38,458 bases of DNA from Escherichia phage vB_EcoM-606R7: sequence record ON470580. One strand, 5' to 3'. This document shows positions 2,312 to 33,941 of this stretch, in pieces. The translations under genes were made by a program, and so were the position numbers. The notes beneath the pieces are model-generated. The model ran no database searches, was not told the origin of the DNA, and saw only the letters and a program-made list of their open reading frames with translations. Each line of letters begins with the position of its first letter. Position 1 is the first letter of the stretch.

Positions 2312-5300
2312 CCCGACGCGATGACTGCATAATTGACACAACCCTGCTGTCGATCAGATCCACCAGTCCCCTGGCTGAGCGCGCATCTATCTCGCCATTG
2401 CTCCCTTGATTCTGAATGCTGATGTGATACACGGGAGAATAAACAAATCCACCACCACCATTCACATTTCCAATGGCCCTGACCCCAAGAGAGCCGTCCG
2501 CTGCCCGTGTCAGTGGCATGATTGCTTCAGGCCCGGCCTCGCCCATCAACCCGGCACCTTTCGCAAAAGCAAAATACGTCGGTGTATCCACAATAGTGTT
2601 ACTGTAAGCACTCAGATTTGCCGATGTGTAAACACCACCTTTTGCGTTTGCCACTGCCCCCGAAATCCATCCGCCGACCGTACCAAGCCACCCTCCGGCA
2701 CCGGAGAGTGATTTCAGTCCGTTAACAATGGCTGCATTCATCAGAATTTTTGAAACTTCCCGGAGAACTGAACTCCCCCAGTTCCTCCAGTCCACAACAT
2801 TCCCGGCCAGTGCATCGGAAATATTTGATACCAGCCCGTCCATCGTGGAAACGACAGCATCTGCCGCCTGTGAAGCATAATCGGTGGCACTGTCTGCCCA
2901 GTTGGTCAGTCCCTCCTGGAGTCCGGCATTCCAGTTATTACGTAAAGCATCGGCCTTTGCATAATAATCCTGCTGATCGCTGAGACGCTCTTCCAGATAT
3001 TTTTTATTCAGTTCTTTCTCCTGTTTCCACAGGGCTTCTTCAATTTCTCCGGCCTGATACTGTCTCAGCAGCTCGTTATTTTTCTGCTCAAACGCCTGCC
3101 GGATACTCCACATTTCCTGGAGTCGTTCACGCATCCGTGAGCCTTCACCATATCCCAGCAACTGCGCTTCGTCAGATGCCCGGGCACTGGCATTACTGTC
3201 CGCCAGACTGCTCTCATACGCAGCAAGCTGCTCACGAATCTTTTTCTGGTCGATGAGTGCTGCATTCTGCAAAAGCGTTTTTTTCTGCGCTTCTGACAGG
3301 GTTGATAATTCGCCCTGACTGACCTGATATTTCATCTTAGCCAGTTCAGTATTCTGCCCTGCCAGTGCTATTTGTTCTTTTTGCTGTTTAATCAGCCGTT
3401 TATAAATATCTTCTGTTTTTTCCGCTTCGGTCTTTTTATACGCTTTGGGTTTATTTGCCTGGTTATTTCGCCAGGCATCCAGTGAGTTATTGATATAATT
3501 CTGTCTGGCTGTCTGATACGCCTCTCCCACAAAGCCGAGATCATCCGCAGCATAACCCAGGCGGGCACGCTCACGGGCTTCCCCCTTCAGGCGGGACAGA
3601 GCCAGTTCGCGCTCGCTGTTATTCAGTGCGGTCTGCTGTTTATCATCCAGGGTTGCCTGTGGTAGCCGTAACGGTACATTCACCAGCCCCTGTCGCTGCA
3701 GAAGTAATTCATTACCGAGCCCGAGAAGGCGATTAAACTCGGTATGCTGCCCATTCATGATCAACAGGGACTGATACGCTTTGTTTTGTTCCGCGGCCTG
3801 TTGACGGATCAACGCCACCCGTCGCTCCTCCAGCCCGGCAAGCACATCCTGAATGGATTGCGCTTTGCCCTGCATTTGTGTGAGACGGGACTGTTCAACT
3901 GCCAGTTGATTTGTTGCTTCTGCAAGCCCTTCTGTGACAGTTTTTACCGACGTCATGTGGTTAATCATAAAACCGTTATCGGTTGTCCAGCCCGGGTTTG
4001 CCAGCACATACTGATAGCCAGCAATTTTTTCCTGTAAGGATTTAATCTTACTTTTCTGCTCGTCAATTAACCTGTTTTGCTCATCAAGTGCCTGCCGCGT
4101 CTTTTCCTCATTATCTGACGCTTCAGGAAGCGACATTGCCGACGTTTTCTGGCGAATTTCGTCGATTGTTGCGGCATACTGGCGTGCAGATTCTCTGGCC
4201 TGCTCCTGATTCTGATACATCGTGTACCAGGCCGTCGCCCCCAGCATGACGAGTCCCGGCACACCACCAACCAACCCCAGCGCACCACTTAACAGACGAC
4301 TCCCCACTGACGTGACAGTATTCAGCGTTGTCTGTGCAGCTGTTCTGGCCGCAATATTACGGGTAAGTGACGCCTGGGCAGCTGTCAGCTTCGCTTCTGC
4401 TGCGGCCTGCCTTTCGGTACCGCGAGCAGCAACAACCGCCTGTTGCGCACGATAAACCGCCGCACGCGCCCTGGCGGTTGCTATCTGTGTCCCCCGAAGT
4501 TGCGCTTCAGCAAGAGCCACTTCGTTTCTGGCTGCAGTAATTAATCCGGCAGTTGCAGATCCAGCAGACGACGCCATATTGCCAAAATATCGGGCTACCC
4601 CGACGGCAACCAGTGCGCCAGCTGCAGCAGCCACGGTATCAATATTGTCTGCAACACCATTCAACACCCCGGTGAGTGTCTTTGTCACTCCGCTTGCCTC
4701 GTTCGCACCACCAACCCAGGCCATAAAGGCGTTTTCAACTTTGGTTGCAGAGGATGAAACAGTATCAGGCATTGCTGCATATTCATCACGCAACGCCCCA
4801 AGCTGACTAATCAGTGCAGGAACAACCTTATCGGCGGTCAGTTTTCCGTTATCCGCCATGGCCTTCAGATCCTTACGGGCAACACCCATTCCCGCAGCCA
4901 GCGCACGAATAACACGATCGCCGTTCTCATTCACAGAGTTAAATTCTTCACCGCGCAGCACTCCCTGCGCCAGTGCCTGACTGAACTGCGTGATCACCGA
5001 ACTGGCTTCTGCTGTACTGGCACCGGATAATTTCAGGCCCGTGGAGATCGCCTCGGTGACTTTCAGTACCTCCTCAGAACTGTAGCCATACTCCCGCATG
5101 GAAGCTGCAGAGCGGGCAAAAAGGCTGGCGTTATCAGAAAACGCCGTTCCCGTTCTCTGGCTGATTGCCATTAATTCACGTTGTGATACCTGAAAATCAT
5201 CACTGGACTGTGAAGCCTGCTTCAGACGGGCATTTACTGAATTCCACTCATCGGCGAGAGAAATAAGATGACCGGTAGCAAAAGCTCCGGCAAATGCCCC

Positions 5301-5532: not shown

Positions 5533-5554
5533 AAAAAAAACCGCCGAAGCGGTT
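5533..5554 (-). terminator. Terminator-like hairpin (UUCG tetraloop plus U8) in the T-H spacer
   Basis: Minus-strand RNA reads AACCGC-UUCG-GCGGUU followed by eight U, directly upstream of the tape-measure RBS. Confidence 0.4.
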
Positions 5555-18259: not shown

Positions 18260-19318
18260 TCATGCTTTCCACTTCAGGACACCCGAATTTCTCGCGTGCA
18301 TCAAAAAACGAATCAGCAACAACAGCTGGCTGCCGTGTTTTTCTTCAAAATCTTTTACCCCGGCGTGCAGTTCGTTATGACATTTACGGCACAGCGGAAT
18401 AACAAACAAATCATCAGCCTTTGTTCCCATCCCTCCCAGCCCATGACCAATGATGTGATGCGGATCATCTGCCTGATTACCGCACGTCATGCATTTCTGC
18501 GTTTTTACCCAGCGCGTGTATACAGGCATCTCTTCCCGTTGTGGTTTCTGGCGCTGGAGATACTGAGCCGGTGACTCCGGATCAACGGCAATGCTGACCA
18601 CCGTCTCTTCCTGTGGTGGGTTCTGTTGCTGGTGGACGAGAGGCGGTAGCGCAATATTTTTTGTGCGCTGCTTCAGTATGCTGGTGGCGGTCTGCTCTCC
18701 CGGTACGATGTCGCTTTCACGGTACATTGAGCGGATTTTTTCCGCACGCAACCCCAGCGAACGACGTAATACTGCCTCCGGAAGCGCGTCCGCCACTTGA
18801 TTGCAGACCGCCCACCAGGATAATTCAGCCAGCGATAACTCCCGCTCCTGCGTGCCATTCATTGCATGGCGTATGACGTCAATCATCCATGCTGACAGGT
18901 TTTGATGAGCAAGTTGCCCGAGTGATTCGGATGTCTGGTCACGCAACTGGTTGTCGCAGTGCCAGCACAACACCATCGCGCCGGTACCATAACGATGTAT
19001 GACGATTTCACTGTGATGATAGTCACCATGAGGCCACTGGCAGGATTTGACATGACGCAACAGCCAGTCAGACAGTGCACTAGCGCCGCCAGCAGCACGA
19101 ATCACACGCTCATTGCTGAAAAATGGCAGTAATGATTTATCCTCCACCAGCGGCTGGCGGACGGCAGGGACGACTCCGGATGGCAGGCCGCGCATGCTTT
19201 TCGGTTCCGGCTCCACCAGTACCCGGGGATTATGAAATACCTGCATGGATTCACGGCCCGGCTTAAGGACCACCAGCCCGAGTTCCGGCACCGGAACAGG
19301 TCGAAGTAATACCCGCAC
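18260..19318 (-). CDS. DUF968-family prophage protein with C-terminal HNH-like Cys/His motif (YdfU-like)
   Basis: 352-aa ORF; C-terminus CMTCGNQADDPHHIIGHG...CRKCHNELH; lies between Q/RusA and the hok region, as ydfU does in Qin (recalled). Confidence 0.55.
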   Translation of the reverse strand: MRVLLRPVPVPELGLVVLKPGRESMQVFHNPRVLVEPEPKSMRGLPSGVVPAVRQPLVEDKSLLPFFSNERVIRAAGGASALSDWLLRHVKSCQWPHGDYHHSEIVIHRYGTGAMVLCWHCDNQLRDQTSESLGQLAHQNLSAWMIDVIRHAMNGTQERELSLAELSWWAVCNQVADALPEAVLRRSLGLRAEKIRSMYRESDIVPGEQTATSILKQRTKNIALPPLVHQQQNPPQEETVVSIAVDPESPAQYLQRQKPQREEMPVYTRWVKTQKCMTCGNQADDPHHIIGHGLGGMGTKADDLFVIPLCRKCHNELHAGVKDFEEKHGSQLLLLIRFLMHARNSGVLKWKA

Positions 19319-19319
19319 G

Positions 19320-19592
19320 TTACCTCCAGATCCGTTGCTGGTATGTGCGGGATGGACGCGGCGGGCGTTCGGAATAAGGGAGCCTGACGTAGATTATCCA
19401 GTGACGGTAGTCGAGGCTAAGGGCTTTCTTAAACTCATATCCACGTCTGCGGTAGTTATGAATCAGCCATTCGGCCTGTTCTTCAGTGCAGGGATCGTGC
19501 TGATACCAGTCATATTTGAATGCGTGAGAACGCAGCCCGTGCCTGCTGGCAAGGTCGGTATCAGAATTGTGATGTTTGGTATTGTGCGCCAT
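19320..19592 (-). CDS. Hypothetical nin-region protein
   Basis: ORF in the correct orientation; start placed at MAHNTK because the longer ORF start runs into the upstream terminator. Confidence 0.35.
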   Translation of the reverse strand: MAHNTKHHNSDTDLASRHGLRSHAFKYDWYQHDPCTEEQAEWLIHNYRRRGYEFKKALSLDYRHWIIYVRLPYSERPPRPSRTYQQRIWR

Positions 19593-19663
19593 CGGTTGTC
19601 TCTGCTGGCGCAGCAGGTGCCAGTTGTTCAGGCTGGCGTGCGTATTGTAAACCAGAATGCCAG

Positions 19664-19690
19664 AAAAAAACAAAACCCGCCGAAGCGGGT
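19664..19690 (-). terminator. Intrinsic terminator downstream of the lipoprotein moron
   Basis: Minus-strand RNA reads ACCCGC-UUCG-GCGGGU followed by a U-rich tract. Confidence 0.55.
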
Positions 19691-19819
19691 ATGCTAAAAC
19701 AAACTGAAGGTAATATGCCGGACTTGTAAAGGAACGATAGAATAATTATCGGATTAAATCCTGACTCAATCCATAGAGTTTACAGCGTTTTCACTAATAA
19801 TTTACCGTCCCGCTATACA

Positions 19820-20212
19820 TTACTGCCCAGTTTTAACGAAGTTTTTAAAGGAAACAATTGCCTGATAGGGGTTTGGTTGACAGCCAAACATATTATCGCA
19901 AAAAGGCTTGATGAAAATTCTTGCGGATCCATCTTCATTTGGCATTTTACTCACTTGATAAGCGAGGAATGGGCTATTTGGTGAAGGGTTATAAGTGGAA
20001 ATTAGCGTGTCTGTCGCCGTTTGAATTTTCCATGAGGAATTATTAGCCAACCAGAATTGCGCTCGTTTCCAATAAAAGTCACATTGCTTTTCATCTTTAC
20101 ATGTTAGTGGTTTCATTGCTTCTGCTTTCAACGCAGGATCGATCTTTGCTGCACACCCTCCCAACATTACTGTTGCAATCATTACACCTGCAACTAAAAC
20201 AAGTTTCTTCAT
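19820..20212 (-). CDS. Lipoprotein moron (AT-rich, signal peptide with lipobox)
   Basis: MKKLVLVAGVMIATVMLGGCAAK signal with lipobox; RBS AGGGAG; locally AT-rich compared with its neighbours; own terminator downstream. Confidence 0.7.
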   Translation of the reverse strand: MKKLVLVAGVMIATVMLGGCAAKIDPALKAEAMKPLTCKDEKQCDFYWKRAQFWLANNSSWKIQTATDTLISTYNPSPNSPFLAYQVSKMPNEDGSARIFIKPFCDNMFGCQPNPYQAIVSFKNFVKTGQ

Positions 20213-20354
20213 CTCCCTGCCCCCATCAGTAAAAGTTCGGTTCTCTGATAATAGAGTTAATCAACGGAAAAACGCCGAAGCGGGTTAAGTGTGGGTGCAT
20301 TGAGGATGCCTGACACATCAGAGGTGGCGAGGGATTTCTCCCCCGCCTGGTCTC

Positions 20355-20510
20355 TTACTCCTCAGGTTCGTAAGCTGTGAAGACAGCGACCTCCGTCTGG
20401 CCGGTTCGGATTCGTACCTCGCAGAGGTCTTTCCTCGTTACCAGTGCCGTCACTATGACGGTTAAACAGATGACGATCAGGGCGATTAGCATCGCCTTTT
20501 GCTGCTTCAT
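20355..20510 (-). CDS. hok: Hok/Gef-family type I toxin (HokD/RelF-like)
   Basis: 51-aa sequence MKQQKAMLIALIVICLTVIVTALVTRKDLCEVRIRTGQTEVAVFTAYEPEE matches recalled HokD; long untranslated leader upstream (20511-20800). Confidence 0.85.
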   Translation of the reverse strand: MKQQKAMLIALIVICLTVIVTALVTRKDLCEVRIRTGQTEVAVFTAYEPEE

Positions 20511-20800
20511 AGCCTGCTTCTCCTTGCCTTTCGGCACGTAAGAGGCTAACCTAGATTTGCCGTTCATAGATTGAGCCTCAGATTAATGTTAAGCGTCTTG
20601 CAGGACGCGTAATGTTAACTGGGGCTTTTCTCTACCTGCCGTTGGTGTTCATGCCCGAGGCAGATAGCCTCAAGCACCCGCAGCAATTCTACTTAACTCT
20701 CCTTTTCCCGCAAACCGTTTTTACCCCCAGCGGCAAATCGAATACACCACCAGCGCCACCGCCATCGCAATTCCTACCGTTGTGAATGCTTCAGGCCAAG

Positions 20801-21196
20801 TCATCGATTCACCTCCTGCTCAATATTTTTAAGGTCATTTTCCGCATACAGTATTGCTGTCCTGGCTGCTCGTAACCGGGATTTGGCATTTTTCTCTTCA
20901 CGTTCAAGTTTTGCCACAGCTTCACGAAGAGCATCCCGCTTTGCATAGAGTGATTTAATCTCAGTCACGATGTTTTCACCGTTTCTCGCACGGTCGAGAA
21001 CAAGTTCGAACGGATCTAAAGCCAATCCACACCGTTTGCAGGTAATCGTACGATTCACTTCTGAAATTGTTGTACGGATATGCTGACAGCATTTTTGCTC
21101 GACACTTTTTTCGTTGGTTATCACAACGTTGAGGAGTCCTTCCTCCTCTGATTTTGGCTGTACCAGGGTGATAACATTGTCGATTTCATTTTTCAT
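20801..21196 (-). CDS. Hypothetical protein with Cys-rich zinc-ribbon-like segment and coiled-coil C-terminus
   Basis: 131-aa ORF with CCQH...CKRCG cysteines and a charged heptad-like tail; its stop abuts the next gene. Confidence 0.45.
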   Translation of the reverse strand: MKNEIDNVITLVQPKSEEEGLLNVVITNEKSVEQKCCQHIRTTISEVNRTITCKRCGLALDPFELVLDRARNGENIVTEIKSLYAKRDALREAVAKLEREEKNAKSRLRAARTAILYAENDLKNIEQEVNR

Positions 21197-22828: not shown

Positions 22829-23083
22829 TTACATCATCTGCCAGTCTGGTTTCTCTTTTCNNNNNNNNNNNNNNNNNNNNNNNNNNNNNNNNNNNNNNNN
22901 NNNNNNNNNNNNNNNNNNNNCTCTTTCCGATGGCTCATAAAGAAAATTAACCTGATTACGTGGGTCATCCTCTTTTACCGGAAATAAAACGATATTGCTT
23001 AACTCATCTTCTGGTTTTATTTCCATGCTCTTCTCCTTTGATGTGAATGCCAGCGGTAATTGAAGCCTGATAGCTAATTTCAT
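22829..23083 (-). CDS. Hypothetical protein (interrupted by an N-run)
   Basis: ORF spans the N-run; only its N-terminal part is reliable. Confidence 0.3.
   Translation of the reverse strand: MKLAIRLQLPLAFTSKEKSMEIKPEDELSNIVLFPVKEDDPRNQVNFLYEPSERXXXXXXXXXXXXXXXXXXXXXKEKPDWQMM
22861..22920. other. Assembly gap (60 N)
   Basis: Run of n characters. Confidence 0.99.
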
Positions 23084-27230: not shown

Positions 27231-27288
27231 TTTCTGGTGACGTTTGGCGGTATCAGTTTTACTCCGTGACTGCTCTGCCGCCATTTTT
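27231..27288 (+). ncRNA. dicF: DicF-like small RNA (cell-division inhibitor)
   Basis: TTTCTGGTGACGTTTGGCGGTATCAGTTTTACTCCGTGACTGCTCTGCCGCC followed by ATTTTT matches the DicF sequence as I recall it; GGCGG...CCGCC terminator stem; sits between ydfC and dicB. Confidence 0.6.
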
Positions 27289-27457
27289 AAAGTGAATTTT
27301 GTGATGTGGTGAATGCGGCTAAGCGCACGCGGAACAGTTAAAACCAAAAACAGTGTTATGGGTGGATTCTCTGTATCCGGCGTTAATTGTTAACTGGTTA
27401 ACGTCACCTGGAAGCACCAGGCACCGCATCACAAAACTCATTGTTGAGGGCGCGATA

Positions 27458-27646
27458 ATGAAAACGTTATTACCAAACGTTAATACGTCTGAAGGTTGTT
27501 TTGAAATTGGTGTCACTATCAGTAATCCTGTATTCACTGAAGAGGCCATTAACAAAAGAAAACACGAACGGGAGTTATTAAATAAAGTATGCATTGTTTC
27601 AATGCTGGCCCGTTTACGTCTGATGCCAAAAGGATGTGCACAATGA
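27458..27646 (+). CDS. dicB: Cell-division inhibitor DicB
   Basis: 62-aa sequence MKTLLPNVNTSEGCFEIGVTISNPVFTE.AINKRK.ERELLNK.CIVSMLARLRLMPKGCAQ matches recalled DicB; RBS GAGGG. Confidence 0.8.
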   Translation: MKTLLPNVNTSEGCFEIGVTISNPVFTEEAINKRKHERELLNKVCIVSMLARLRLMPKGCAQ

Positions 27647-27831
27647 ATCCAGTATTTGCACTTATTCTGACGGTTTTTCTTGTTTCCGGAGAGCCAGTTG
27701 ATATTGCAGTCAGTGTTCACAGAACAATGCAGGAATGTATGGCCGCAGCAACCGAACAGAAAATTCCAGGCAACTGTTATCCGGTCGATAAAGTTATTCA
27801 CCAGGATAACGAAATCCCGGCAGGATTTTAA
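27643..27831 (+). CDS. ydfD: YdfD-like small membrane (lysis) protein
   Basis: 62-aa ORF MNPVFALILTVFLVSGEPVDIAVSVHRTMQECM... with a hydrophobic N-terminus; ATGA overlap with the dicB stop. Confidence 0.65.
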   Translation: MNPVFALILTVFLVSGEPVDIAVSVHRTMQECMAAATEQKIPGNCYPVDKVIHQDNEIPAGF

Positions 27832-27924
27832 AACAGCACCGTAATAAATATCCAGTTTCATTCTTATATGTCAGCAATGGCAGAGATTTGTTCACCCTTA
27901 AATCTGTGATGAGGTTTATCAATA

Positions 27925-30368
27925 ATGAGCACTGATAAAGAAGAATTTGCACTATATTGCGAAGCAAAAAATGACAAAGTAAGAAAACGCCTGGGAATTA
28001 AAGGTGGTTTTTACTGGACTACAGCAAAAAAATTATCTGTTGCAATCTCCCGCTGCATTACCGCAATGGATGACAACGATTATGATGAAGACGACTTTAA
28101 AAAACCCGTCCGCGTCAATTTGCCCGTTGTTGACGACCTTCCGCCAGAAGGCGTGTTTGATACTGAATTCTGCAACCGCTATGAAAAAGGCGGGAAAGAT
28201 GGCATCACAATGACATTTATCGGCCCTTCCCCCTCTGTTCAGGACAAACCAGCCAGCACTGACAATACCAACATCAACGGCGAAGACATGACTGAGATTG
28301 AGGAGAGCATGCTTCTGCCTGTCTCCGGTCAGGAACTGCCCATTCGTTGGCTTGCTCAACACGGCAGCGAAAAACCAGTAACGCACGTTTCACGCGACGA
28401 ACTCCAGGCATTACACATTGCACGGGCTGAAGAACTACCGGCTGTTACTGCCCTGGCTATTTCGCATAAAACCAGTCTGCTCGACTCGCTGGAGATTCGC
28501 GACCTCCACAAACTGGTTCGTGACACTGACAAAGTTTTCCCTAATCCTGGTAATTCAGACCTGGGACTAATAACTGCTTTTTTCGAAGCATACCTGGACG
28601 CTGACTACACTGATCGGGGTCTGCTGACAAAAGAGTGGATGAAAGGAAATCGTGTTTCACGCATCACCCGCACGGCTTCCGGTGCTAATGCTGGCGGTGG
28701 GAACAAAACCGATCGCAATCCGAATTTAGTACACACCCTCGACACACTGGATGTGGAGATTGCAGCAGCCACACTTCCGATGGATTTTAATATTTATGAA
28801 ATTCCGGGCAGCGTTTATCGTCGCGCANNNNNNNNNNAGTCCTGAAAAAAGAAAGTCCGTTCAAAGAATGGTCCGCAGCACTTCGTGCAACCCCGGGTAT
28901 TCTGGACTATTCCCGCGCCGCTATTTTTGCACTTATCCGAAGTGCACACCCTGAATTTTATCACTACCCGGGACGCCTTCAGGGGTATATCAACGCCTAT
29001 TTGACGGAAACTGATCACGAGAACCCCAGCAAGGAAACTCTCACAGCTGCCCGGCATACGCCGGAAAAAGATATCCTGGAAGAAATTAACCGCGAGGTGG
29101 TTACTGAGCGTGAAACAGAAGAAGAAAAACCACAACCATCTGACGCAATGGCAGGTGAACAGGCAACAACTGAAACAATGGAACCGGATACAACTGAACA
29201 TTGCCAGAACGCGCAGTCGCTGGATGCTCAGTCGCAGGTGAGTTCCGCTAACCAAGTAAAAGTCACCGCTGACGAAGTAAACAAAATTATGCAGGCAGCC
29301 AATATCAGCCAGCCTGACGCCGATAAGTTACTTGCTGTATCGCGTGGTGAATTTGTTGAGGGGATTAGCGACCCTAATGATCCGAAATGGGTCAAGGGGA
29401 TCCAGACTCGCGATTCTGTGAACCAGAACCAGCATGAATCGGAACGGAACTACCAAAAAGCGGAACAAAACAGCCCAAATGCGTTACAAAACGAGCCAGA
29501 AACGAAACAATCCGAACCAGTAGCGCAACAGGAACCGGAAAAAGTCTGCACCGCCTGCGGTCAGAGCGGTGGCGGCAACTGCCCTGATTGTGGCGCGGTG
29601 ATGGGCGACGCAACATACCAGGAAACATTCGATGAAGAGAATCAAGTTGAAGTTCAGGAAAATGATCCGGAGGAAATGGAAGGCGCTGAACATCCACACA
29701 AGGAGAACCCTGGCGGCAATCAGCATCACGCCAGCGATAATAAAACTGGCGAGGCGACAGATCCCTTAATTAAGGTGAATGGTCATCATAAGCTCACATC
29801 CACCAGCAGAGCGGGGATTCATCTGATGATCGACCTTGAAACCATGGGAAAAAATCCCGATGCCCCGATTATCTCAATAGGCGCAATATTTTTCGATCCA
29901 CAAACCGGAGATATGGGACCGGAATTTAGCAAGACCATCGATCTGGATACTGCTGGCGGAGTCATTGATCGTGACGTCATTAAATGGTGGCTGAAGCAAT
30001 CACGTGAAGCGCAGTCTGCCATTATGACCGATGAAATCCCGTTAGATGATGCACTACTGCAATTGCGGGAATTTATCGACGAAAACTCCGGTGAATTTTT
30101 TGTTCAGGTCTGGGGTAATGGGGCCAACTTCGACAACGTGATTTTACGCCGTTCATACGAACGACAGGGTATCCCCTGCCCGTGGCGCTACTGCAACGAT
30201 CGCGATGTACGCACAATCGTTGAGCTGGGGAAAGCCATAGACTTCGATGCCAGAACTGCTATCCCATTCGAAGGTGAGCGCCATAATGCACTTGATGACG
30301 CTCGTTACCAGGCAAAATACGTTTCAGCTATCTGGCAAAAACTGATCCCGAGTCAGGCTGATTTTTAA
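27925..30368 (+). CDS. Exodeoxyribonuclease VIII-like protein (YdfE-like N-terminal part, DEDDh-type 3'-5' exonuclease C-terminal domain); spans a 10-N gap
   Basis: Reading frame stays open from 28839 to 30368, and the 27925-28827 ORF is open up to the gap, so one roughly 810-aa product is likely. C-terminus carries [15 protein letters not shown] and HNALDDA motifs. Reading frame across the gap is not verifiable. Confidence 0.55.
28828..28837. other. Assembly gap (10 N)
   Basis: Run of n characters. Confidence 0.99.
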
Positions 30369-30426: not shown

Positions 30427-30630
30427 ATGAGCAGCTTATTTTTAACCGAAGATGAATTGCTAATATTAACGGGCTGCAAATATGCAAGCCACCAGCGAAA
30501 ATGGTTAATGGAAAACGGGCTTCCGTTCTATACCAATCGTAGTGGCAAACCGATTGTCAGCCGGGAGCTATTTACCTGCAATAAAACTTTACCACCACGC
30601 GAGGTAGAGCCGAATTTTGGTGCGATCTGA
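30427..30630 (+). CDS. xis: Excisionase (Xis)
   Basis: 67-aa ORF immediately upstream of int with a one-base stop/start overlap. Confidence 0.6.
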   Translation: MSSLFLTEDELLILTGCKYASHQRKWLMENGLPFYTNRSGKPIVSRELFTCNKTLPPREVEPNFGAI

Positions 30631-31655
30631 TGGGAAGACGAAGGAAAAATCCTGAACACGAAAAATTACCTCCAAATGTATACCCAAATAAATATAGTTA
30701 TGTATGGAAACCAACATCCAGAGAATCTGTCACACTAACCGCCATCAAGGATGGTTTGGCTGCTTTATGGAAAAAGTATGAGGAAACTGTAAATAATCGC
30801 GATCGTGCAATGACATTCGGTCGCTTGTGGGAAAAATTCCTCGCCAGCGCCTATTACAGTGACCTTAGTCCAAGAACACAAAAAGATTATCTGCAACATC
30901 AAAAAAAGTTGCTTGCCGTATTCGGTAAGGTACCAGCGGATTCCATAAAACCAGAACACATCCGTCGATACATGGACAAAAGAGGGGAGCAGAGTAAAAC
31001 GCAAGCCAACCATGAAAAAAGCAGTATGTCCCGTGTTTACAGTTGGGGGTATGAGCGAGGGTACGTGAAGGCTAACCCATGTGCAGGTGTAAGTAAATTC
31101 AAGGCCAAAAACCGCGAACGATATGTAACCGACAAAGAATACCAGGCAGTATTAAGCGTTGCACCTCTTCCTGTTTTTATCGCAATGGAAATTGCCTATC
31201 TGTGTGCAGCGAGGGTTTCCGATGTGTTATCGCTGAAATGGGAACAGATTGGAAACGACGGGATATTCATCCAGCAAGGGAAAACCGGAAAAAAACAGAT
31301 AAAAGCATGGAGTCCACGATTACAGGCAGCGATCGAAAAAGCAAAACAGTTACCAAAATCTGCCTATGTGATCAGCAATCAATACGGCAACCGATATATG
31401 TACAAAGGCTTTAACGAAATGTGGGTAGAAGCAAGAAATCGCGCAGGCAAAATTTCAGGTATTTTAACCGACTTCACCTTTCATGATCTGAAGGCGAAAG
31501 GAATTTCAGACTATGAAGGAAGCAGCCGGGATAAGCAACTTTTCTCTGGTCACAAAACCGAAGGGCAAGTGCTAATCTATGACAGAAAGGTTAAAGTTTC
31601 ACCAACACTTGATGTCCCGTTACCTGAAAATATTCCAAGAAAATATTCCAAGTAA
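30630..31655 (+). CDS. int: Tyrosine integrase (lambda Int family)
   Basis: 341 aa; N-terminus MGRRRKNPEHEKLPPNVY parallels recalled lambda Int MGRRRSHERRDLPPNLY; C-terminal catalytic region with FHDLKAKG; ends 53 bp from tRNA-Ser. Confidence 0.85.
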   Translation: MGRRRKNPEHEKLPPNVYPNKYSYVWKPTSRESVTLTAIKDGLAALWKKYEETVNNRDRAMTFGRLWEKFLASAYYSDLSPRTQKDYLQHQKKLLAVFGKVPADSIKPEHIRRYMDKRGEQSKTQANHEKSSMSRVYSWGYERGYVKANPCAGVSKFKAKNRERYVTDKEYQAVLSVAPLPVFIAMEIAYLCAARVSDVLSLKWEQIGNDGIFIQQGKTGKKQIKAWSPRLQAAIEKAKQLPKSAYVISNQYGNRYMYKGFNEMWVEARNRAGKISGILTDFTFHDLKAKGISDYEGSSRDKQLFSGHKTEGQVLIYDRKVKVSPTLDVPLPENIPRKYSK

Positions 31656-31707
31656 TTCCAAGTGTGATTTTTGTCACTGACTTAATGATGTGTAAGTGAT
31701 TGAATTT

Positions 31708-31797
31708 TGGCGGAGAGAGGGGGATTTGAACCCCCGGTGGAGTTGCCCCCACTCCGGTTTTCGAGACCGGTCCGTTCAGCCGCTCCGGCATCTCTCC
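31708..31797 (-). tRNA. serU: tRNA-Ser (anticodon CGA), serU-like; probable prophage attachment target
   Basis: Hand-folded: GGAGAGATGCCGGAGCGGCTGAACGGACCGGTCTCGAAAACCGG... with long variable arm and CCA; 3' end faces the integrase gene. Confidence 0.8.
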
Positions 31798-31890
31798 GTT
31801 CAGATGGTTGCCATGATGCCAGGAAATTTGGCATTTTAACAGTCCCTGTCCGTGCAATTTTGTTCAAGTGACGAGTTTGCGAGCAAAACG

Positions 31891-32688
31891 ATGATTAAGT
31901 GGCCCTGGAAAGTACAAGAATCAGCACATCAAACTGCCCTTCCCTGGCAGGAAGCACTATCGATCCCCCTTTTAACGGGTCTGACGGAACAGGAACAAAG
32001 CAAATTAGTCACTCTTGCCGAACGTTTTTTACAGCAAAAGCGGCTTGTTCCTTTACAGGGCTTTGAACTGGATTCATTAAGAAGCTGCCGGATAGCACTT
32101 CTATTTTGCCTACCCGTTCTGGAGTTAGGACTGGAATGGCTGGATGGTTTTCATGAAGTCTTAATTTATCCTGCGCCATTTGTGGTCGATGATGAATGGG
32201 AAGACGATATCGGTCTGGTGCATAACCAACGTATTGTTCAGTCAGGTCAGAGCTGGCAGCAAGGGCCTATCGTTTTGAACTGGTTGGATATACAAGATTC
32301 TTTTGATGCATCTGGTTTTAACCTGATTATTCATGAAGTCGCTCATAAGCTGGACACCCGTAACGGCGATCGCGCCAGCGGAGTTCCCTTTATTTCGTTG
32401 CGTGAGGTTGCTGGCTGGGAACACGATCTTCATGCTGCAATGAACAACATTCAGGAAGAAATCGAATTAGTTGGTGAGAATGCAGCGAGCATTGATGCTT
32501 ATGCTGCCAGTGATCCTGCTGAATGTTTTGCCGTACTTTCTGAATATTTCTTTAGCGCCCCAGAACTTTTTGCTCCTCGTTTCCCTTCATTGTGGCAACG
32601 TTTCTGTCAATTTTATCAACAAGATCCTTTGCAGAGACTGCATCACGCTAATGATACAGACTCGTTTTCGGCGACGAATGTTCATTAA
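31891..32688 (+). CDS. mtfA: Mlc titration factor A (MtfA/YeeI), chromosomal
   Basis: Starts [28 protein letters not shown] and contains the metalloprotease-like HEVAHKLD motif; matches recalled MtfA. Confidence 0.85.
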
Positions 32689-32788
32689 TTAACAACTTTG
32701 CAGATTAATTAACCAATTGAAATGGCTTATGAAATTTAGTGTTGACAGACAAGGTACCGCTAAGTAATATGCGCTCCGTTCACACGAT

Positions 32789-32864
32789 TCCTCTGTAGTT
32801 CAGTCGGTAGAACGGCGGACTGTTAATCCGTATGTCACTGGTTCGAGTCCAGTCAGAGGAGCCA
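32789..32864 (+). tRNA. asnT: tRNA-Asn (anticodon GUU), asnT-like; HPI attachment site
   Basis: TCCTCTGTAGTTCAGTCGGTAGAACGGCGGACTGTTAATCCGTATGTCACTGGTTCGAGTCCAGTCAGAGGAGCCA read directly. Confidence 0.9.
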
Positions 32865-33025
32865 ATTTTCTGTTTTCATGCATCCTTGCAAATCTTTATC
32901 TGATGTTGATTCAACAGGTTAGTGTGAAAACTCTTCTCGGTGCATTTTGATTTTACCCTACGCATCGGGAAAAATTGGTGGTCAAATCTGGGATCAGGTT
33001 AGTTCGATAATGGAGTGACCCCCAT

Positions 33026-33941
33026 ATGTTCCTTACCGACGCAAAAATCCGCACCCTCAAGCCTTCTGATAAACCCTTTAAAGTCTCCGATTCTCACGGT
33101 CTGTATCTGCTGGTCAAGCCGGGTGGCTCCCGCCACTGGTATCTCAAAGCTGGAGGTTGCGTCCCGCACACGGCAGCACCTGAGTAACATAATGCGCCAT
33201 GCGGTCCATCAGGAGTTAATCGATACGAACCCTGCAGCAAACCTTGGCGGCGTGACCACACCTCCTGTCAGACGGCACTATCCTGCCCTGCCGCTGGAGC
33301 GGCTGCCTGAACTGCTTGAACGTATTGGGGCATATCATCAGGGCCGTGAACTGACCCGGCATGCCGTTCTGCTGATGCTGCATGTGTTCATTCGCTCCAG
33401 TGAACTGCGTTTCGCCCGCTGATCAGAGATTGATTTCACAAACCGAGTCTGGACGATACCCGCGACGCGAGAACCCATTATTGGCGTGCGTTATTCCGGC
33501 CGCGGGGCAAAAATGCGAATGCCGCATATCGTCCCCCTCTCAGAACAGTCCATCGCCATTCTGAAACAGATTAAGGATATCACCGGTAATAATGAACTGA
33601 TCTTCCCCGGCGACCATAACCCGTATAAGCCAATGTGTGAAAACACGGTCAATAAGGCACTGCGGGTGATGGGTTACGACACGAAAAAGGATATCTGCGG
33701 TCACGGCTTCCGGGCAATGGCATGCAGTGCGCTGATGGAATCGGGTTTATGGGCAAAGGACGCAGTAGAACGCCAGATGAGTCATCAGGAGCGCAATACC
33801 GTGCGCATGGCTTATATTCATAAGGCAGAGCACCTAGAAGCCCGCAAAGCGATGATGCAGTGGTGGTCGGATTATCTGGAAGCATGCCGAGAATCTTATG
33901 CACCGCCTTATACAATTGGTAAAAATAAGTTTATCCCATAG
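33026..33941 (+). pseudogene. int: HPI P4-like integrase, inactivated (internal deletion with frameshift plus an in-frame TGA at 33420-33422)
   Basis: N-terminus MFLTDAKIRTLKPSDKPFKVSDSHGLYLLVKPGGSRHWYLK stops after 51 codons; the integrase reading continues in another frame (LEVASRTRQHLSNIMRHAVHQ...) to a TGA, then resumes in frame (SEIDFTNRVWTIP... to the end). Confidence 0.8.

Follow-up and report, generated by a model that had tools for sequence, protein, structure and literature searches.

Introduction

T5 Llp is an FhuA-blocking lipoprotein whose gene lies beside that of the receptor-binding protein. Its protection extends to the infected cell as well as to the progeny phage. Morons, in the definition of Juhala and Hendrix as restated in PMC3594210, consist of DNA that is additional to otherwise collinear related phages, have a terminator of their own, and have their own promoter for expression from the repressed prophage. 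There is precedent for tail-operon morons and for outer-membrane lipoproteins as exclusion factors (PMC3594210). They include HK97 gp15, for which exclusion has been demonstrated (Cumby et al. 2012; PMC3594210), and Cor, the exclusion lipoprotein of phages phi80, N15, HK022 and T1, which acts on FhuA (PMC3594210). Lambda Bor, which like plasmid Iss is associated with serum resistance, is an outer-membrane lipoprotein that is widely conserved in prophages and is made in the lysogen (PMC3594210). Here we describe a gene for a lipoprotein of 130 amino acids (19820-20212, minus strand) in Escherichia phage vB_EcoM-606R7, sequence record ON470580. It was analysed within a stretch of 38,458 nucleotides, hereafter called the window.

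The window gene compares with these systems as follows. Like HK97 gp15, it encodes a small envelope protein on an add-on cassette of an HK97-type lambdoid prophage, one of its distant homologues occupies the gp15 position, and it has chromosomal relatives outside prophages (YebO for gp15, Burkholderiaceae genes for the window lipoprotein). However, gp15 is no lipoprotein but a YebO-family protein of the inner membrane, the two have no sequence relationship, and exclusion is a demonstrated function of gp15 and only a candidate function of the window lipoprotein. Like Cor, the window protein is predicted to be a prophage-encoded outer-membrane lipoprotein, and tail-tip genes adjoin close relatives of the window gene. 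In contrast, its match to the Cor family phrog_1119 (E 0.0096) has no scored stretch and is confined to the signal peptide (residues 1-44); the Yersinia homologue likewise matches phrog_1119 over residues 1-22 only. Cor has an unrelated mature domain and is only about half as large. Llp is, as the window protein is predicted to be, a small disulfide-containing outer-membrane lipoprotein of a siphovirus, but no PHROG, Pfam or fold match links the two, no direct pairwise comparison having been made. Bor resembles it as an outer-membrane lipoprotein encoded by a lambdoid-prophage moron, whereas the Bor Pfam model was not matched (E <= 0.01) and both genome position and predicted fold differ. Cor, Llp and HK97 gp15 are therefore treated as working analogues, none of which is a relative.

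Results

An additional cassette between hok and rem

The window is an HK97-like lambdoid prophage, with HK97 tape-measure, capsid and terminase genes, a CI-like repressor gene, and an integrase gene adjoining mtfA. The lipoprotein gene lies in the nin region, where a first-pass annotation of the sequence had placed it, with replication genes on one side and rem, DUF968 (ydfU), rusA and Q on the other. It belongs to a segment of 595 bp (19691-20285, minus strand) that is made up of a 5' leader (20209-20272, by direct reading of the sequence), the gene itself, as given in the list of open reading frames (ORFs), a 3' untranslated stretch of 129 nt running from the stop codon to the terminator (19691-19819), and one copy of a 13-bp repeat.

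In phages Evi, 640R1 and 813R8 the insert is absent, and the hok and rem flanks are joined by a single hairpin. Their megablast matches cover the flanks only, which are about 155 bp apart there, and in the alignment with Evi one hairpin, AACCCGCCGAAGCGGGT, links rem with hok. Inspection of the window revealed the 13-bp sequence CGCCGAAGCGGGT at both ends of the insert, with 582 unique bases between: the left copy (19678-19690) is inside an intact hairpin, and the right copy (20273-20285) is in a truncated, hok-proximal one. When one mismatch was allowed, the repeat motif had three matches in the window, versus 0.25 expected by chance, namely the two exact copies and a near-copy at 5542-5553. 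This near-copy, CGCCGAAGCGGT, lies just upstream of the tape-measure gene, at the position of the gp15 moron of HK97, and no additional gene is found there.

Composition also sets the segment apart. Its GC content is 0.397, versus 0.509 for the window and 0.549 and 0.494 for the flanking 1-kb blocks, which places it in the 0.5th percentile of all 595-bp windows (z = -2.5). The GC content at third codon positions (GC3) of the lipoprotein ORF is 0.35, versus 0.44-0.68 in five neighbours, from Q through the DUF551 ORF; GC3 is likewise low (0.40) in the 131-amino-acid ORF at 20801-21196. The windowed profiles thus agree with the earlier description of the gene as AT-richer than its neighbours.

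By megablast, 4463 genomes match the 751-bp query at least in part, and 254 of the 5426 complete E. coli genomes contain the full segment. A tblastn search of 50,697 GenBank phage records found vB_EcoS-689R5 as the sole carrier. For E. coli-type loci from IMG/VR, the cassette lies between hok and rem in 55 of 56, and the contig of the other one (L019) stops before hok. The rem and ydfU genes that flank these cassettes range from 84 to 99% identity, and the E. coli carriers differ in their Q, lysis and structural modules, one of them being a gutted prophage. Compared with the window, most E. coli-type copies are longer by some 68 bp inserted in the 3' untranslated region of the lipoprotein gene; this insertion is found at about 3176-3243 in phage 689R5 (locus L002) and in most of the IMG/VR loci L022-L074. 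A comparison of the 129-nt untranslated stretch of the window with known RNAs gave rsmX as the sole Rfam match (E 0.67), which was rejected.

With respect to the definition of morons given above, the segment presents extra DNA, distinct composition, and a downstream terminator 129 nt past the stop codon. It is a horizontally acquired 595-bp cassette that fills a cargo slot of the nin region, between hok/sok and rem and between near-identical terminator hairpins. Its identity as a moron lipoprotein appears very probable: the empty-site phages, the composition, the conserved lipobox and the homologues at unrelated prophage positions (the last two presented below) bear out the proposal of the first-pass annotation that an AT-rich lipoprotein moron had been acquired at this locus.

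Terminator hairpins delimit the slot

On the minus strand, a stem ACCCGC-UUCG-GCGGGU at 19690-19675 is followed by UUUGUUUUUU. Stem with UUCG loop (19675-19690) and U-tract (19665-19674) form an intrinsic terminator at 19665-19690, minus strand, that folds at -13.1 kcal/mol (z = -3.4 versus shuffles). It is the only terminator-like site in a scan of 19300-20900. The gene had been credited with this UUCG-tetraloop terminator as its own. A strong terminator does follow the gene, but the hairpin is a resident of the hok-rem junction: it is present in insert-free phages too, and follows hok directly in Evi.

The hok-proximal hairpin reads ACCCGCUUCGGCG-UUUUU on the minus strand, and 3 nt (GGG) of its 3' arm are missing. 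The interval 20255-20300 folds at -5.1 kcal/mol (z = -0.33), no better than shuffles. The same truncation was seen in both E. coli-type sequences examined at the junction. The equivalent hairpin is intact after hokD of phage Tritos and upstream of the homologues in Enterobacter (L004) and in a Pantoea-type phage (L071), where it reads CCCGCTTCGG(C/T)GGG, then TTTT(T)GC(C)GTT.

In the Tritos slot, an intact hairpin separates hokD from the cargo, which is a hypothetical gene followed by one for the metallopeptidase ImmA/IrrE, and another intact, near-identical hairpin separates the cargo from rem. The sequences of this slot (OV696610.1) are L101 2513-4976 and L100 1494-1600. The hok-rem slot looks like a moron hotspot, and we infer that its cargo may be swapped by recombination inside the hairpins.

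Relatives occupy unrelated positions

The close relatives of the window gene, with 58-82% identity, belong to prophages, in which their positions are unrelated. In Enterobacter hormaechei the homologue is flanked by the tape-measure gene and gpM, and in Pantoea ananatis by gpI and gpJ. In two Pantoea-type phages from IMG/VR it comes just before a second lipoprotein gene, with gpI and gpJ beyond. In Yersinia enterocolitica it adjoins ParDE and SieB. A prophage remnant of Phytobacter diazotrophicus, near tonB, consists of the gene and a gpM fragment (L078 6001-7342), and in E. coli P13-6 (L099) the structural genes are gone, while hok, the lipoprotein gene, rem, ydfU, rusA and Q are retained. 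A distant relative in an unrelated siphovirus is located between the tail chaperone and tape-measure genes, which is the HK97 gp15 position; other distant prophage relatives adjoin Arc/YdaS, HSDR_N and HTH, or WYL and HigBA genes. Homologues are AT-rich relative to their flanks in Enterobacter and the Pantoea-type phages, the contrast being small in Yersinia (0.405 versus 0.429), and a terminator follows the homologue in Enterobacter, Pantoea ananatis and the distant siphovirus.

More distant relatives in Paraburkholderia/Burkholderia (38-45% identity) are syntenic chromosomal genes of host-like GC content, with the order alkA-gshA-lpp-...-OEP-T2SS in 12 of 17 loci. No close relative turned up among the species-representative genomes of GTDB. 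In the four tail-module carriers, the C-terminal ends of gpJ, compared for a common receptor-binding domain, are ordinary; divergence falls mainly in the last ~40-60 residues, and no known receptor was recognized. In the two Pantoea-type phages, the second lipoprotein gene is unrelated to the homologue, which it overlaps (L070 6374-6784, L071 6332-6679; phrog_890 'lipoprotein'; phrog_914, with no function assigned), and both lipoprotein genes form a small cluster beside the tail-tip genes.

A predicted outer-membrane lipoprotein of a large family

The N-terminus of the protein, MKKLVLVAGVMIATVMLGG|C, has K/R near the start, an uncharged h-region and L-G-G-C. It was scored with a rule of the PROSITE PS51257 type (K/R in the n-region, uncharged h-region, [LVI..][ASG..][AGS]-C, Cys at 15-35), which fits the window protein and 48 of 51 aligned family members. 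The signal peptide comprises residues 1-19 (20156-20212), Cys20 is encoded at 20153-20155, and the mature protein has 111 amino acids and an isoelectric point of 8.9. In the alignment Cys20 is invariant and Asp at +2 occurs in none of the members, the window protein having Ala there. Since Asp is missing at +2, the sorting rule of E. coli predicts an outer-membrane location. By established rules, the precursor would be processed at Cys20 by Lgt, LspA and Lnt, and Ala at +2 would route the lipoprotein via the Lol pathway to the outer membrane. Of the mature cysteines, C38, C44 and C105 are invariant across the family and C111 nearly so; the four probably form two periplasmic disulfides. The signal peptide with lipobox and the cysteine-rich mature part, first read from the 130-amino-acid ORF alone, are therefore both upheld.

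Scans of the protein against Pfam (E <= 0.01), NCBIfam and PADLOC-DB 2.0 (E <= 1) gave no match. It matches phrog_16082, which has no function assigned, over its full length (residues 1-130 of 130, E 1.8e-83), and it matches phrog_4186 weakly. The homologues P0008, P0162 and P0172 match phrog_16082 too. A word-indexed search returned 16 relatives only, in Escherichia, Enterobacter, Pantoea and Phytobacter. An exhaustive profile search returned 1139 cluster representatives at E <= 1e-3, 531 of them at E <= 1e-10, the majority being lipoproteins of 125-135 amino acids. In some distant members (P0032, P0101, P0102, P0111 and others) a PDZ domain is fused to the C-terminus, and in P0118 the family domain is duplicated in tandem. 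The PDZ fusions point to a periplasmic protein-binding module. Source names of the relatives are all 'hypothetical', except for one JGI entry, 'uncharacterized protein YaiE (UPF0345 family)'. A full-text literature search (protein accession; hokD with lipoprotein) found no paper on the lipoprotein gene.

The AlphaFold2 model, built from 12 sequences, has two long helices packed against a four-stranded sheet (predicted local distance difference test score 78, predicted template-modelling score 0.70). A sequence search of PDB chains gave chance matches only, and Foldseek searches of PDB and BFVD gave nothing at E <= 1e-3. Resemblances to Flpp3 (DUF3568), the N-terminal domain of BamC and KA1/TBP-like alpha+beta domains, at 5-15% identity, Foldseek E >0.01 and template-modelling scores of 0.4-0.5, are generic, carry no functional information and are not evidence of homology.

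Among E. coli alleles the ratio of nonsynonymous to synonymous divergence (dN/dS) is ~0.1, and 55 of the 56 E. coli-type copies are intact. Comparisons between genera gave dN values of 0.09-0.28 and saturated dS; where it could be computed, dN/dS is 0.016-0.09. The family is large, without annotation, and under strong purifying selection.

Probable expression in the lysogen and in lytic growth

No consensus sigma-70 promoter was found in a scan of 19300-20900, and prophage expression of the lipoprotein gene is for this reason likelier to come from read-through of hok. Such read-through is likely because the hok-proximal hairpin is truncated. In published RNA-seq data for lysogens of E. coli LF82, hokD of Tritos is transcribed 3792-fold over the prophage background (PMC9928086 Table 1), and two cargo genes of the Tritos slot are at 30- and 14-fold the prophage background (PMC9928086). 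The Tritos cargo may have its own promoters; the slot sequence contains TTGACA motifs. Read-through is made plausible both by the disruption of the proximal hairpin and by the transcription of hokD and cargo in Tritos lysogens.

The following course of events is proposed. Insertion of the cassette would have deleted 3 nt of the hok-proximal hairpin, so that the constitutive hok/mok transcript would continue into the lipoprotein gene and end at the intact distal hairpin. Read-through from hok would in turn lead to the lipoprotein being made in the lysogen, and we consider its expression there reasonably likely. The gene is co-oriented with delayed-early transcription and should therefore be transcribed in lytic growth as well, when the lipoprotein would also be made from antiterminated early-right transcription. 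The cassette puts the intact terminator ~600 nt farther from hok, which could alter the 3'-end folding or processing that governs hok mRNA.

The leader holds a conserved block, UUUUACUGAUGGGG(G/A)(C/U)AGGGA(G/U), and a stretch of ~25 nt, UUUUACUGAUGGGGAUAGGGAU, is common to the E. coli, Enterobacter and Pantoea-type versions despite saturated synonymous sites. It also contains a five-codon upstream ORF, ATG GGG GCA GGG AGA TGA (20226-20209), the stop codon of which overlaps the lipoprotein start as ATGA. The upstream ORF (M-G-A/I-G-R/I/M-stop) is present in L007, L070 and L071 too, with its TGA overlapping as ATGA or GTGA; in the Enterobacter locus L004 its ATG is instead in frame with the lipoprotein gene. 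The upstream ORF could serve translational coupling, or could merely be a G-rich ribosome-binding region.

Neighbouring genes and other features of the window

The gene order on the minus strand is DUF551 ORF, 131-amino-acid ORF, mok/hok with sok, lipoprotein gene, rem-like gene, DUF968/ydfU, rusA and Q. The upstream neighbour of the cassette is the type I toxin gene mok/hok (20355-20567, with Hok at 20355-20510, minus strand; Pfam HOK_GEF, E 3e-23), and the sok antitoxin RNA is at 20505-20679 (Rfam match, 102 bits). The hok/mok/sok locus as a whole (20355-20679, minus strand) looks complete. Downstream lies the rem-like gene of 92 amino acids (19320-19598, minus strand, ATG at 19598; phrog_1212, E 3.5e-37), which is annotated as a 279-nt coding sequence in related records. 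The product of the 131-amino-acid ORF (20801-21196, minus strand) has CxxC motifs and a coiled-coil tail; its E values of 1e-3 to 1e-2 against LmuB and the TNB zinc-ribbon of Cas12f miss the curated thresholds, and these matches are probably meaningless.

Elsewhere in the window, runs of 65, 60 and 10 N bases are found at 1054-1118, 22861-22920 and 28828-28837; the run at 22861-22920 interrupts the ORFs of a low-GC stretch. A second low-GC valley (27271-28250, minimum 0.38) contains a possible further moron: an ORF of 180 amino acids (27319-27861, minus strand) without a Pfam match, which is oriented opposite to the exonuclease VIII-like gene beside it. In the region 30630-33941, mtfA (31852-32688) lies between the prophage integrase gene (30630-31655) and two ORFs that resemble fragments of a second integrase (33015-33422 and 33486-33941), which suggests that an earlier integration left a remnant at this locus.

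Discussion

Outer-membrane lipoprotein, promiscuous placement, retention in degraded prophages and strong constraint make up the pattern of a prophage accessory gene of phage-phage conflict. The function that we tentatively favour is superinfection exclusion at the level of the envelope, an assignment that may be right but falls clearly short of probable. The small alpha/beta domain, anchored in the outer membrane and facing the periplasm, would bind a conserved envelope component, and binding would stop adsorption or DNA entry of superinfecting phages, in the way that Cor and Llp act from the outer membrane and HK97 gp15 from the inner one. High conservation between genera, together with the housekeeping relatives, suggests that the target is a conserved envelope component rather than a phage-specific one. 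Taken as a whole, with cassette, expression and function combined, this explanation seems to us to stand an even chance of being correct. A spanin role of the Rz1 type was considered and rejected: Rz and lysozyme are encoded elsewhere in the phage (14768-15762), and the protein is larger and not embedded in Rz.

Several observations weigh against envelope-level exclusion as formulated here. The distant Paraburkholderia/Burkholderia relatives are syntenic and chromosomal, and some relatives are fused to PDZ domains; this suggests a housekeeping role in the envelope that the phage copy may have kept. The late modules of the carriers vary, and one carrier is without any structural genes, so the gene is not bound to one type of tail or receptor. 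Finally, we infer read-through from RNA folding and from a related phage, Tritos, in which the proximal hairpin is intact.

Alternatives include a host-fitness role and a lytic-cycle role. As a host-fitness or virulence factor, it would change the envelope to the advantage of the lysogen (serum or complement resistance as with lambda Bor/Iss, stress tolerance, adhesion) and leave phages unaffected. The type and setting of the gene resemble those of lambda bor (PMC3594210), isolates from blood and of avian pathogenic, enterotoxigenic and sequence type 131 E. coli are among the listed carriers, the gene is retained in degraded prophages, and the Burkholderiaceae chromosomal relatives suggest a general envelope role. 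However, the protein matches neither the Bor family nor any other Pfam family, only 254 of the 5426 complete E. coli genomes carry the gene, and its repeated placement in tail operons or beside SieB and toxin-antitoxin genes suits phage-phage conflict better, so that we regard this alternative as unlikely. The lipoprotein might otherwise be made mainly during phage growth, to mask receptors on lysing cells or to aid envelope passage or lysis. A second role ascribed to T5 Llp is receptor masking of this kind, by which progeny are not lost on debris. Such a helper would fit the four independent lineages in which the gene lies within, and co-oriented with, the late tail operon, the co-orientation of the window gene with delayed-early transcription, and the failure of the scan to find a consensus promoter of its own. 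It is nonetheless a rather improbable explanation, as the gene is placed in immunity or accessory regions in Yersinia and several metagenomic prophages, terminators follow it even within tail operons, which is moron architecture, it persists in remnants incapable of lytic growth, and most related phages are without it.

Small, disulfide-bonded periplasmic lipoproteins are the usual format of immunity proteins and inhibitors that neutralise incoming toxins or enzymes acting in the periplasm, such as colicins, type VI amidase or lipase effectors, or lysozyme. The window protein fits this general format, its strong conservation between genera suggests a conserved target, and the PDZ fusions indicate a protein-binding periplasmic setting. 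Against such a role, for which we see little chance, no known immunity or inhibitor family was matched in Pfam or NCBIfam, and an effector gene was adjacent in none of the contexts examined. A different kind of objection concerns the direction of the event: the gene could be ancestral at the hok-rem junction and Evi-like phages could have lost it by recombination between the hairpin copies. Flanking direct repeats allow precise deletion as readily as insertion, and the site of the cassette is constant across E. coli-type prophages. Its GC content (0.40 versus 0.49-0.55 in the flanks), the homologues with a common leader block at unrelated positions, with a similar upstream hairpin in at least L004 and L071, the unrelated cargo in the Tritos slot, and the restriction of the cassette to 254 genomes, versus 4463 matching at least part of the 751-bp query, all make ancestry at this site very improbable. 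Even if it were true, the segment would remain an accessory cassette.

In a broader view, which we regard as rather doubtful, the window gene would found a hitherto unrecognised family of broad-range exclusion or envelope-remodelling lipoproteins recruited by Enterobacterales prophages, and recombination would make the hok-rem slot a general site for cargo. The prophages, which would carry the gene at five or more different genome positions, would have obtained it from a periplasmic lipoprotein domain of housekeeping function, chromosomal in Burkholderiaceae and PDZ-fused elsewhere. In view of the very high conservation between genera, the target of the lipoprotein would be a conserved envelope machine and not a particular receptor, and the cargo site would borrow the strong constitutive hok promoter.

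Envelope-protein morons are a main route by which lysogens gain phage resistance or virulence traits. The gene described here is small and is found in ~5% of complete E. coli genomes; its family exceeds 1000 sequence clusters and has no Pfam model, so that a phenotype found for one member would provide annotation for many. With cargo that lies between hok and a terminator and differs among related phages, the slot provides a concrete model of how morons may be swapped and expressed.

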